From Auanema rhodensis (Eukaryota; Animalia; Nematoda): a stretch of DNA of 64,000 nucleotides. Below, one piece after another: positions 42,866-50,288 of this stretch. The stretch covers positions 9,300,001-9,364,000 of the forward strand of contig OZ059899.1 of NCBI GenBank assembly GCA_964057225.1, read 5' to 3'. How positions within the stretch are numbered: the first letter of the stretch is position 1; the number at the start of each line of letters is the position of its first letter. The notes below the pieces were generated by a model, which saw nothing but the letters and a program-made list of their open reading frames with translations, was not told where the DNA came from and made no database searches. Made by a program: the position numbers and the translations under genes.

Positions 42866-45796
42866 ATGACTCCTACCTCTCCATCTCCTAATTCTAATGT
42901 TGCTCCACCCTTTAGAAATATGGCAACTATTTTAAATTGCCATCTCTGTCCCAGGTATGACGGCTCTCGTAGCTTTCGTTCTTTTGTTGAATCTTTAAAT
43001 AGATTTTTTAATGTTATGAATCTAAGCTTACCTGAGAGACTATTAATTTTGCCTCTTCTTTTGGAATCAAATGAAACAGCTCTCTCCTTGTATAATAGTA
43101 TTCCTAGTGGCATAAGAACTAATGGCTCATGGATTGTTTTGATGGATCAGCTCACTGAGCTTTTAGCGCCTAAAACAGATAAAAATTTCACCATAGCGCT
43201 TATTCATCGAGTACAACAAGGAGATAAATCTGTTCTTGATTTTAGTATGGAATTAGAGAGAATGGCAAGCACCATAATGTCACCAATGGATCCCGAGCGG
43301 GAACCAATGTTGAAAACGGCATTTTTAAATGGTTTAAAAGAGGAGCTGGGTATTGCGGTTTTAACTAAAAACCCCGCCACTTATGAACAAGCTAAGAAAT
43401 TAGCTAGGTTTGAAGAAGGCGTTCGAAATAGCTTCATGAAAAGAAATGAAGACACTAGCACCTTGAAGGAGCTCATAAATGCTTTACAGCATAAATTAAG
43501 CTTTAGTGAAGAAAGAGAAAGAAGTAGGAATAATAATAATAATAAAAATTATAAAAATTATAAAAAAAATAATAACTGGACTCAGCACAATAATGGCTCT
43601 AATGATTATGAGCGAGAGAGAGAGCGACCTTCTGCCGTACGTTATAATAATAATAACTCGCAGAACGGGAATATGAATAGGCGTCCTAACCCGGGAAACC
43701 GCCCATTTGCGAATGGCAGAAATGCCAATAGCTCGTCTTGGAACCCTAGGCCTAGTTCCCCAAGAAGACAAAGACCATCAGCCAATGGGAATGGTAACTC
43801 AAGGGTATACAGCGTAGCGACCCCATTCATGCCACCGGTCACGTTGTGCCTGACTTTATTGGCACTCTCATGCCTTCCCTTTGGGTCGGCAAAATATCAG
43901 ATTTGCGCTCAATCTGAAGGGGGTATATTAGTAACACCTCCTGTGGTCACAGGCTGCCATAAGGCAGAAATTGAAAAGGCTCACAGTGTTGAGGTAGAAA
44001 TATATCTACCAAAGGCTGAGATAGAGTCATGGGAAGCATGGAAATGCTATGTGAAAAAGTATAAAAGCTGTGTGAGAGATTTCATGTTTTTGAGAGATCG
44101 TAACACCACATTCTCTCATATTGAAACAGTAGATAAGAAAGATTGTGTTCGAGCACATAGAAATCGTATGTGGAATGATAAAATCATGAATGCCCAACAG
44201 CATTCAGTTTTTGAAACACCATTAAACGAGCATAATCCAACTCGCTCTTGGTCCACTGAAGAATGTGTAGAAATTGAACAATTTGTATTGAAGCGAGGGA
44301 TAATAACTAGATTGAAAGAAGATCACATTGTATCAGACTTATTTATAAATACTGATAATTGTAAAGGAAATGAAGGGTTTTGTGCAACTGGTGAAGGTGC
44401 AGTTATCTGGCAACCACCTATCCCATCAGTTGTCTGTCACTATCAAAAACTTGGCCCCTTCTCCGCCATGTTGGGTGATCATATTCTTCTAGTTCACTCT
44501 ATTGAAAGCGCTTTTGTTCTCCAAAATCATTCCACATCCGCTCACGTTCAATCTTGTTTCGAATTCGCTGTTTTTGAATCATCTTCTGAGGCAATTATCC
44601 GATTCACAGCATATCCCCGTGTTTATAATTTGCTTGATCTTTCCAATACTTTGCTTAATGCTGATAAACGCAGAAATAAACGTAATGCATTACCTCAAAA
44701 ACATCGCTCTTTCAGTGATGATTATCTTTTTGTTAATGCGAAATCCCAACCATATGCGTTTCCATTTCTAAGACCTACTTTCATTTTTGGATCTGCATCT
44801 ATCACTAAGTTTTACGCAAAATATATGAGATATGCAGCTACATCATCTTATGAGAGTTTGCTCCAATTCGCGATAGATAATCCACTGTTCATTGACACAA
44901 TTGTTAGTTTAGGATTGACAAAAGATCACATAACTAACTGGGCAAAGTCTAATAATTTCAAAGATCCCAATCTTTTGATTTTACAATGTGTGGGTATAGA
45001 GGAAATTAAACTGGCTACTAGACAGGTGATTAATAGCATGAAATTGGATGATCTTATCACTCAAGTAGCTCGTCGTATAGAAGTTCCTCGGTTAAAAAGA
45101 TCTTTGATGAAATCTACAACATCCATAGAAGATTTCTTTCGAGGGATGGCTCACGCAGTAGTATATCAAGCCACAATTCTTGATGGTACACAAACAGTTC
45201 CATCAATCGAACAGTTGGCAAGAGCCTTATATCCATCTATATTACCACGCAGTGGAAATATGAATCAATCTGAAATTATTGCAACTGCTCAAGGCATGTT
45301 ATTCATGATCCAACAACAATCGGGAAAAGAACAAATATCTCGCGACATGCAAGTCAGTCGACAACAAAAAGCTGATGCTACTGTTAGAAATAACCAAGAG
45401 CAAGATTTAGCAATTATATCCAAGCTGCCTGACTATCACAACCTTTATACAAAGAATAGTACAGCATATTATGGATTTCCTCCACAGTCCATCGAATACC
45501 CACAGGAAAATCCTAAATTCAATAAAACAGAAGTTTTAGAATTCATAAGTTGGGTTAAAACTCAAATCACAACTGATAAAAATATGGTACAGCATACTAC
45601 TGTAACCCCAATAACTTCCACCAAAACTACAATTCGTAGTTTAACAACTCCTACCCCTAATGCGTACGAGAGAGGTCGAGAGTTGTATGTAGCAGAAGTA
45701 TATGACAATGTTCTCCACAAATCAGAGCATAAAACTAAAACGATAATAGATAATAAGTTGAATTATGGGTTTGAGAAAGCGCGTCTCCATAATTGA
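42866..45796 (+). CDS. gag: Gag (Ty3-like capsid) fused to an internal signal peptide and the N-terminal part of a class III/gB-like envelope glycoprotein
   Basis: First ATG at 42866 (frame open from 42692). Capsid motifs PRYDG..F..F, QGDKSVLDF, AFLNGL. N/R-rich tract. Hydrophobic signal at 43829-43891, then a Cys-rich ectodomain with a furin-like KRRNKR site. Confidence 0.88.
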   Translation: MTPTSPSPNSNVAPPFRNMATILNCHLCPRYDGSRSFRSFVESLNRFFNVMNLSLPERLLILPLLLESNETALSLYNSIPSGIRTNGSWIVLMDQLTELLAPKTDKNFTIALIHRVQQGDKSVLDFSMELERMASTIMSPMDPEREPMLKTAFLNGLKEELGIAVLTKNPATYEQAKKLARFEEGVRNSFMKRNEDTSTLKELINALQHKLSFSEERERSRNNNNNKNYKNYKKNNNWTQHNNGSNDYERERERPSAVRYNNNNSQNGNMNRRPNPGNRPFANGRNANSSSWNPRPSSPRRQRPSANGNGNSRVYSVATPFMPPVTLCLTLLALSCLPFGSAKYQICAQSEGGILVTPPVVTGCHKAEIEKAHSVEVEIYLPKAEIESWEAWKCYVKKYKSCVRDFMFLRDRNTTFSHIETVDKKDCVRAHRNRMWNDKIMNAQQHSVFETPLNEHNPTRSWSTEECVEIEQFVLKRGIITRLKEDHIVSDLFINTDNCKGNEGFCATGEGAVIWQPPIPSVVCHYQKLGPFSAMLGDHILLVHSIESAFVLQNHSTSAHVQSCFEFAVFESSSEAIIRFTAYPRVYNLLDLSNTLLNADKRRNKRNALPQKHRSFSDDYLFVNAKSQPYAFPFLRPTFIFGSASITKFYAKYMRYAATSSYESLLQFAIDNPLFIDTIVSLGLTKDHITNWAKSNNFKDPNLLILQCVGIEEIKLATRQVINSMKLDDLITQVARRIEVPRLKRSLMKSTTSIEDFFRGMAHAVVYQATILDGTQTVPSIEQLARALYPSILPRSGNMNQSEIIATAQGMLFMIQQQSGKEQISRDMQVSRQQKADATVRNNQEQDLAIISKLPDYHNLYTKNSTAYYGFPPQSIEYPQENPKFNKTEVLEFISWVKTQITTDKNMVQHTTVTPITSTKTTIRSLTTPTPNAYERGRELYVAEVYDNVLHKSEHKTKTIIDNKLNYGFEKARLHN

Positions 45797-50288: not shown

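Follow-up and report, generated by a model that had tools for sequence, protein, structure and literature searches.

The stretch analysed here, hereafter the window, comprises 64,000 nucleotides of the nematode Auanema rhodensis (contig OZ059899.1, positions 9,300,001 to 9,364,000 of the forward strand) and carries on its plus strand, at 41176-51259, a Ty3/Gypsy element of 10,084 nt, complete with both long terminal repeats (LTRs). Our reading, to which we give a probability of about 80%, is that this element is a young Ty3/Gypsy of the published GAG-ENV-POL kind, that its family likely makes a single precursor predicted to cross the endoplasmic reticulum (ER) membrane twice, that the linker between envelope (Env) and protease bears a PTAP motif, and that a shortened derivative has likely arisen from its spliced RNA. 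The hallmarks of the Metaviridae are present, i.e., LTRs, primer-binding site (PBS), polypurine tract and short target duplication. The first-pass annotation of this DNA had called the insertion recent, and this is borne out both by the LTR pair (41176-41546 versus 50889-51259), identical at 369 of 371 nt with 2 mismatches, and by the insertion site, since the element splits one unit of a tRNA-Arg tandem array in which 83 other units display the empty site. Because of these empty sites, the target duplication is read as 4 nt; 5 nt can also be read if the final LTR base is counted as flank. Both LTRs end in CG instead of the usual CA (41545-41546 and 51258-51259) despite the recent insertion.

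The coding region consists of two open reading frames (ORFs). ORF1 (42545-45796, first Met at 42866) encodes Gag, a hydrophobic signal-like stretch and the N-terminal half of the glycoprotein; ORF2 (45762-50288) encodes the C-terminal half of the glycoprotein, one transmembrane helix, protease (PR), reverse transcriptase (RT), RNase H and integrase (IN). Gag had been described as running in frame into a hydrophobic signal and a Cys-rich ectodomain, and the C-terminal Env half, with its transmembrane helix, as running in frame into a DSG protease, RT, RNase H and IN. We confirmed both junctions (signal at 43826-43882, with a Kyte-Doolittle value of 1.81 over 19 aa; helix and motif positions in Table 1). 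The earlier description of a single Gag-Env-Pol polyprotein stood for the domain order but not for one unbroken ORF in the window copy, which is split between two frames; this description had also omitted an Env insert of about 330 aa, from 44684 to about 45664. The PR-RT-RNase H-IN order of pol and its Gypsy-type RT and RNase H place the element among Ty3/Gypsy. Its Gag matches that of relatives with E values down to 2e-19, and no CCHC knuckle was found in it (42866-43825). The gag frame has no stop over the 107 codons that precede the first Met (42545-42865); this Ser/Arg-rich stretch may represent a coding exon joined by splicing, or translation may begin there at a non-ATG codon. Unlike classical insect errantiviruses (gypsy, ZAM), the element has no separate env ORF 3' of pol; indeed, the plus strand contains no ORF of at least 100 aa between the integrase and the 3' LTR.

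The same arrangement recurs in relatives, and the gag-env-pol layout is, as judged from their sequences, a family trait. Proteins labelled as nematode, with 55-67% identity, came up in the RT search, and several of them are annotated with gag, gB and pol domains jointly. Among the matches listed, all 120 RT relatives carry RT plus PF17917/PF17919, and 23 of the 120 have an Env match, always upstream of PR/RT. An Env-part match was obtained for 167 of the 266 proteins fetched, with both Env halves in one chain in 79; in 39 of the 266, a Pol domain comes after both halves within a single chain, the full Gag-Env-PR-RT-IN order is found in 9, and Env follows IN in 2. A point that weighs against this evidence is that many relatives are gene predictions, able to conceal frame breaks as introns. 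A tree of RT-RNase H was computed from 94 of 133 rows (the window, all 38 env-bearing rows and the best 55 others) by a quick IQ-TREE run with only Shimodaira-Hasegawa-like approximate likelihood-ratio (SH-aLRT) support, leaving out the GyDB/Cer references and the elements named in PMC13524379. There, the element groups with nematode env-upstream elements: its neighbour is an Auanema protein, and both belong to a clade of 14 rows (SH-aLRT 98), made of 11 env-upstream rows labelled Auanema, Caenorhabditis or Diploscapter and 3 rows without detected env, and this clade is nested in a 42-row clade (SH-aLRT 100) with 30 env-upstream rows. The nematode affinity proposed earlier is thus upheld by both the RT search and the tree, with a rhabditid as the likely host. 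The rhabditid polyproteins of Auanema sp. (P0001, P0002), C. auriculariae (P0004), C. nigoni (P0005), C. remanei (CRE_05815, P0006) and C. brenneri (P0007) share 60-67% identity in the RT region, the domain order and the clade with the element; their Env inserts, in contrast, differ in length and do not match that of the window. A metagenome scan gave only generic Gypsy loci at 35-45% identity (80 kept), none of them with an Env match.

The frame break lies in the 35-nt overlap of the two ORFs and is the sole one in the window copy. It seems to be a property of this one copy or of the assembly, because all 11 aligned relatives read through this place without interruption and because contigs from four out of four DNA runs (3 studies) have, at full depth, a length inside the overlap (45762-45796) unlike that of the window. 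A programmed frameshift at 45762-45796 was considered and rejected, since the site is in the middle of a helix and relatives read through it. Against our reading stands that the window copy is broken as assembled and does not encode one polyprotein; it would also fail the uninterrupted-ORF ("intact") filter of PMC13524379. The break lowers the status of the window copy as an intact copy, not the membership of the family.

The envelope had been likened, from its Cys/Trp spacing, to class III fusogens of the herpes gB/chuvirus type, and the predicted structures support a gB-like class III fusogen. The C-terminal half matches Pfam Monjiviricetes_fusion with 30.0 bits for a cut-off of 27, the match to the herpes gB profile being weak, and 162 relatives match this half at E<=1e-3. 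For the N-terminal half, AlphaFold was given 25 aligned rows and predicted a beta-rich region, with a local confidence (pLDDT) of 70-98 in 10-residue blocks over residues 21-260. Submitted to Foldseek, this model gives 107 Protein Data Bank (PDB) matches to herpes gB at E<=0.001 (best 2.7e-10), and further matches to mononegaviral glycoproteins, including G of Nyavirus midwayense (2.7e-13). In P0182, a natural relative with an unbroken frame, the model contains a long central helix and matches prefusion gB of herpes simplex virus 1 with an E value of 9.4e-17. On the other side, the models have a predicted template modeling (TM) score (pTM) of 0.40-0.41 and align to gB with low TM scores of 0.20-0.29; because of these low TM scores, the match to gB is one by domains and not by overall shape. 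The C-terminal half has no sequence match in the PDB, and word-based searches with either Env half returned no protein relatives, which were found by the RT search and the HMMER library. Thirteen of the ectodomain Cys are common to the element and its relatives.

Env inserts vary by subclade (about 100-450 aa) and are often Thr-rich. That of the window is inherited, as it matches the insert of P0123 (26% identity over 255 aa, E 3e-15), the only relative for which such a match was found. The AlphaFold model of this insert has a pLDDT mostly under 50 and an Atlas search gave no usable match, so we assign no fold to it; it is a candidate receptor-binding or shielding module.

This layout has been catalogued. 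Chary and Hayashi (eLife 2026, PMC13524379) describe elements of nematodes, bryozoans and flatworms that have only gB-type ENV and the order GAG-ENV-POL, and in their Supplementary file 1 there are 36 Nematoda GAG-ENV-POL rows, e.g., Clat_errantivirus_4, Ctro_errantivirus_1 and Crem_errantivirus_1. The paper credits Sacco et al. 2022 with the nematode elements, in which ENV and POL have swapped positions, and states that the transmission route of most such elements is unknown. Nematode elements of this kind are further assigned there to the cysteine-bridge class C1a/d or C2a/c. The likeness to our element covers the gene order, the gB-type env between signal and transmembrane helix (assigned by hydropathy in our case), the Ty3/Gypsy pol, LTRs of about 370 nt and a tRNA-Gln PBS; of the 16 nematode rows of Supplementary file 1 of PMC13524379 for which a PBS type is given, 8 have this PBS, two of them with the exact 12-mer of our element. 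The claim of the first-pass annotation that this is a little-described lineage does not hold: the element is a young family in an already published kind, and the window copy adds one more such family to the catalogue. The work of Sacco, Lau, Godinez-Vidal and Kaloshian on non-canonical nematode endogenous retroviruses (J Gen Virol 2022, doi 10.1099/jgv.0.001739) is said to describe a continuous gag-env-pro-pol ORF with a Nyamiviridae-like env, to which our Nyavirus match would correspond.

Table 1. Features of the Ty3/Gypsy element and of its short derivative (window coordinates).
Feature	Position	Strand	Basis or remark
Target-site duplication, 4 nt	41172..41175, second copy 51260-51263	+	empty site, one copy, in 83 other array units
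5' LTR, 371 nt, starts TG, finishes CG not CA	41176..41546	+	
Primer-binding site, tRNA-Gln type	41547..41558	+	12-mer identical to Clat_errantivirus_4 and Ctro_errantivirus_1 (PMC13524379 Supplementary file 1)
Leader, 1.3 kb, numerous short upstream ATG frames	41559..42865	+	short derivative retains it up to 42619
Likely splice donor (AG/GT) of the joint skipping gag and env	42619..42621	+	joint contigs; 6 of 8 places of donor consensus
Gag, capsid-like domain about 43076-43468, N/R-rich C-terminal part	42866..43825	+	Pfam Retrotrans_gag E 1.7e-4, Ty3_capsid E 0.019, both below cut-off
Internal signal-like hydrophobic stretch (predicted)	43826..43891	+	hydropathy; counterpart in 43 of 48 relatives
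Env N-terminal half, gB-like beta domains, terminal furin-type RNKR motif (44672)	43892..44683	+	AlphaFold and Foldseek
Env insert, about 330 aa, in variable loop; helical, Thr-rich end; furin-type RLKR at 45089	44684..45664	+	
ORF1/ORF2 overlap, 35 nt: frame break in long central helix of Env	45762..45796	+	
Env C-terminal half (central helix, crown domain)	45789..46493	+	Pfam PF24664 E 1.7e-7 above cut-off, PF00606 E 1.1e-3 below cut-off
Transmembrane helix (predicted)	46494..46550	+	Kyte-Doolittle 2.63
Predicted cytosolic linker, transmembrane helix to protease; PTAP 46611-46622, likely splice acceptor 46709-46710	46551..46754	+	
Stretch missing at second joint of short derivative, pol removed	46737..50027	+	run X13; ends in 15-of-17 direct repeat, not GT..AG
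Aspartic protease, DSG at 46809, begins at in-frame Met	46755..47066	+	Pfam
Reverse transcriptase and RNase H, YLDD at 48102	47778..48836	+	Pfam E 2.5e-35, 4.3e-32, 2.8e-31
Integrase (HHCC, core) and C-terminus through stop codon	49194..50288	+	Pfam E 4.9e-14, 3.8e-14
Polypurine tract	50877..50888	+	
3' LTR	50889..51259	+	

From this layout, we propose the following life cycle. The family would make one Gag-Env-Pol precursor, predicted to cross the ER membrane twice: Gag would be synthesized in the cytosol, and the internal signal would open translocation. The gB-like ectodomain would then fold in the lumen, where signal peptidase and furin likely cut it, and the transmembrane helix would halt the transfer, leaving PR-RT-RNase H-IN in the cytosol and initially tied to the Env tail. 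This membrane-spanning arrangement, suggested earlier for the window copy, is supported by the signal-like stretch that precedes Env in 43 of the 48 relatives of testable length, and it is tempered by the fact that the topology is a prediction from hydropathy only. The tether of Pol to the Env tail is likely a precursor state only. The protease of the element itself would likely free Pol at xNxV/I-type sites of the linker, and the linker PTAP would likely recruit TSG-101 and the endosomal sorting complex required for transport I (ESCRT-I) for budding. The genomic RNA would be spliced by the host from 42619 to 46711, then likely reverse-transcribed, with loss of pol by template switching. The resulting short non-coding derivative would spread now by borrowing the proteins of the full element.

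In retroviral Gag, PTAP binds TSG101 of ESCRT-I (PMC8952333). We found P[TS]AP in 10 of 43 non-redundant linkers between transmembrane helix and protease (10/51 when all are counted), for a shuffle mean of 0.14; none of 2000 composition-keeping shuffles reaches 10. Among the env-less Gypsy controls, from which the 12 clade rows without detected env had been excluded, 1 of 25 has it (Fisher p 0.045). The positive rows are spread over three subclades, although they are not independent. In the same 43 linkers, PPxY and YPxL, with 1 and 2 occurrences, are not enriched. Several points argue against this motif being a general and specific property of the linker: 33 of the 43 linkers lack it; Gag parts contain it as well, in 3 of 45 cases (shuffle mean 0.63); the positive rows are related, hence the p values are optimistic; and the single positive control row may carry an env of its own. 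We give about even odds to the PTAP of the linker being a late domain. The motif usually sits a few residues behind an xNxV/I motif, and processing may therefore leave it on a short spacer peptide instead of Env. Motifs of the xNxV/I type, which we take to be protease sites, are found in 26 of the 43 linkers (shuffle mean 1.9) and in 3 of the 25 env-less controls; both this assignment and the fact that the motif was defined after viewing the alignment call for caution. Pol would likely be released by the protease of the element.

The second process left its trace in sequencing runs. A joint that skips 4091 nt, from the GT after 42619 to the AG at 46710, removes the whole of gag and env and is present in contigs from 6 of the 8 runs (4 studies), of which 4 are DNA and 2 are guessed to be RNA. 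The donor ranks among the best 14 of 429 GT sites, donor and acceptor being scored against general consensus patterns. In run X13, one 389-nt contig bears both the 42619-46711 joint and a second joint, from 46736 to 50028; with two presumed LTRs, the derivative would measure about 2.7 kb and have no coding capacity. The 4091-nt joint is most simply read as the trace of splicing in an RNA that later underwent reverse transcription and, after that, shortening, and the joint belongs at least partly to the short non-coding derivative. Its contigs have depths of 781, 155, 7.2 and 8.4 versus 307-490, 140-213, about 10-14 and 7.4-12.4 for the gag-pol contigs of the same DNA runs, which are similar values, depth not being copy number. 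Runs X12-X15, guessed to be RNA, cover gag/env versus pol in a patchy way, to which we attach no weight. Several observations weaken the case for splicing: the acceptor at 46709-46710 agrees with the consensus in no more than 4 of 8 positions; only 1 of the 6 runs has at least 31 letters on the short side of the joint, the rest having 28-30 because the next branch comes 28-30 nt further on; and the contigs were placed on the window at 90% likeness. Further pol deletions were seen in one run each, from 49210 to 49806 (X5) and from 47470 to 47915 (X8).

The joint can be explained in other ways. It could be an ordinary reverse-transcriptase deletion that ends in GT..AG by chance, a mechanism for which the second joint of the derivative is an example and which the weak acceptor would suit. 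However, the 4091-nt joint has only 2 nt of shared sequence, versus the 15-of-17 repeat at the second one, and just 0.37% of 200,000 random deletions produced GT..AG (0.002% with consensus terms added post hoc), which makes this very unlikely. Alternatively, the splice could be genuine and serve as a working mRNA route which gives Pol without Gag and Env, in the foamy style, so that most Pol would never be tied to the membrane. The joint is GT..AG, takes out exactly gag plus env and lands 15 codons ahead of the in-frame Met of the protease; the leader frame in phase with Pol is open for 71 codons; and a spliced pol mRNA is attested in foamy viruses (by titles cited in PMC7828637). Yet this in-phase leader frame has no ATG, out-of-frame ATGs at 46724 and 46747 precede the protease Met, and where the joint can be phased (X13) it runs into the pol deletion and not into pol. 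Moreover, the close Caenorhabditis relatives P0005, P0006 and P0007 have Ile-Ile at the aligned place, where an AG is impossible in that register. A Pol-only mRNA from this joint is possible but poorly supported, and we consider such a route somewhat unlikely. A wider proposal, which we hold unlikely, is that of budding viruses with a split plan: the PTAP late domain would stand behind the Env anchor and not in Gag, the RNA spliced past gag and env would supply free Pol in the foamy style, and the 2.7-kb derivative, resembling a defective-interfering genome, would preserve the splice in DNA.

Other alternatives concern the envelope. If env were a decaying passenger, with a gB-like region that no longer works, the element would move only intracellularly; the sole frame break of the window copy does lie in env, and the Env insert is long and has no confident fold. 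But none of the 4 DNA runs agrees with the window at this break, 13 of the ectodomain Cys and the insert are common to relatives, and env is retained across the 42-row clade, so that we find decay quite unlikely. That the envelope is a separate nested insertion, or a fragment of an endogenous RNA virus fallen into a Gypsy element, is barely conceivable. The nearest predicted folds are mononegaviral glycoproteins, which is consistent with an old capture; a recent nested insertion, in contrast, is refuted by the gene order in relatives and by the RT tree. Indeed, the envelope is not surrounded by terminal repeats, is in frame at both ends, and has the same place in dozens of divergent relatives, in agreement with the initial view of env as integral to the element.

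Two known systems frame the preferred reading of a gag-env-pol element with a splice-derived derivative. Cer1 of C. elegans (PMC10309623) is likewise a Gypsy element of a nematode: its gag and pol are not separated by a stop, its genomic RNA contains host splice sites, and it can use host splicing for a regulatory product. Unlike our element, it has no fusogen, and in its spliced RNA exons from the gag side are linked to a 3' exon, which gives the export protein CERV. Foamy viruses have an RNA splice that skips gag to reach pro-pol, but they are Retroviridae with env 3' of pol (PMC7828637), whereas in our element the Pol-coding spliced RNA is only a candidate. The main text of PMC13524379 makes no mention of ESCRT, PTAP, splicing, budding, late domain, frameshift or polyprotein. 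We found no literature report of splicing or late domains in nematode gag-env-pol elements, within a coverage that leaves out most subscription papers and Sacco et al. 2022; the PTAP enrichment and the splice-derived derivative are thus possibly modest additions to a catalogued layout. With an ESCRT-binding motif enriched in the linker across several subclades, the question of transmission becomes testable, and a splice junction fixed in DNA hints at the processing of the RNA of the element. If both were true, they would explain how a capsid-fusogen-polymerase precursor leaves the cell and how Pol escapes from the membrane.

The surroundings of the element are also rich in repeats. The tandem array extends over positions 1-54385 of the window, with units of about 409 nt and 610 nt (84 matched) that include 33 tRNA-Arg(ACG) genes. 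A tRNA gene at 51395 begins 135 nt downstream of the 3' LTR end; a single insertion cannot demonstrate Pol III-guided targeting. No second copy of the element was found within the 64-kb window. A second enveloped LTR element, of the BEL/Pao type, occupies 54385-64000 on the minus strand and encodes a polyprotein of 2391 aa with a phlebovirus G2-type env, from which one in-frame stop near 56456 separates the last 292 aa; its LTRs are identical across the 216 nt lying inside the window. It resembles the Atlas/Cer13 kind. Finally, a 3.5-kb insertion at 19904-23386, located at the start of a tRNA gene, has 122-nt terminal inverted repeats (93% complementary) and short ORFs only, and is likely a decayed DNA transposon.

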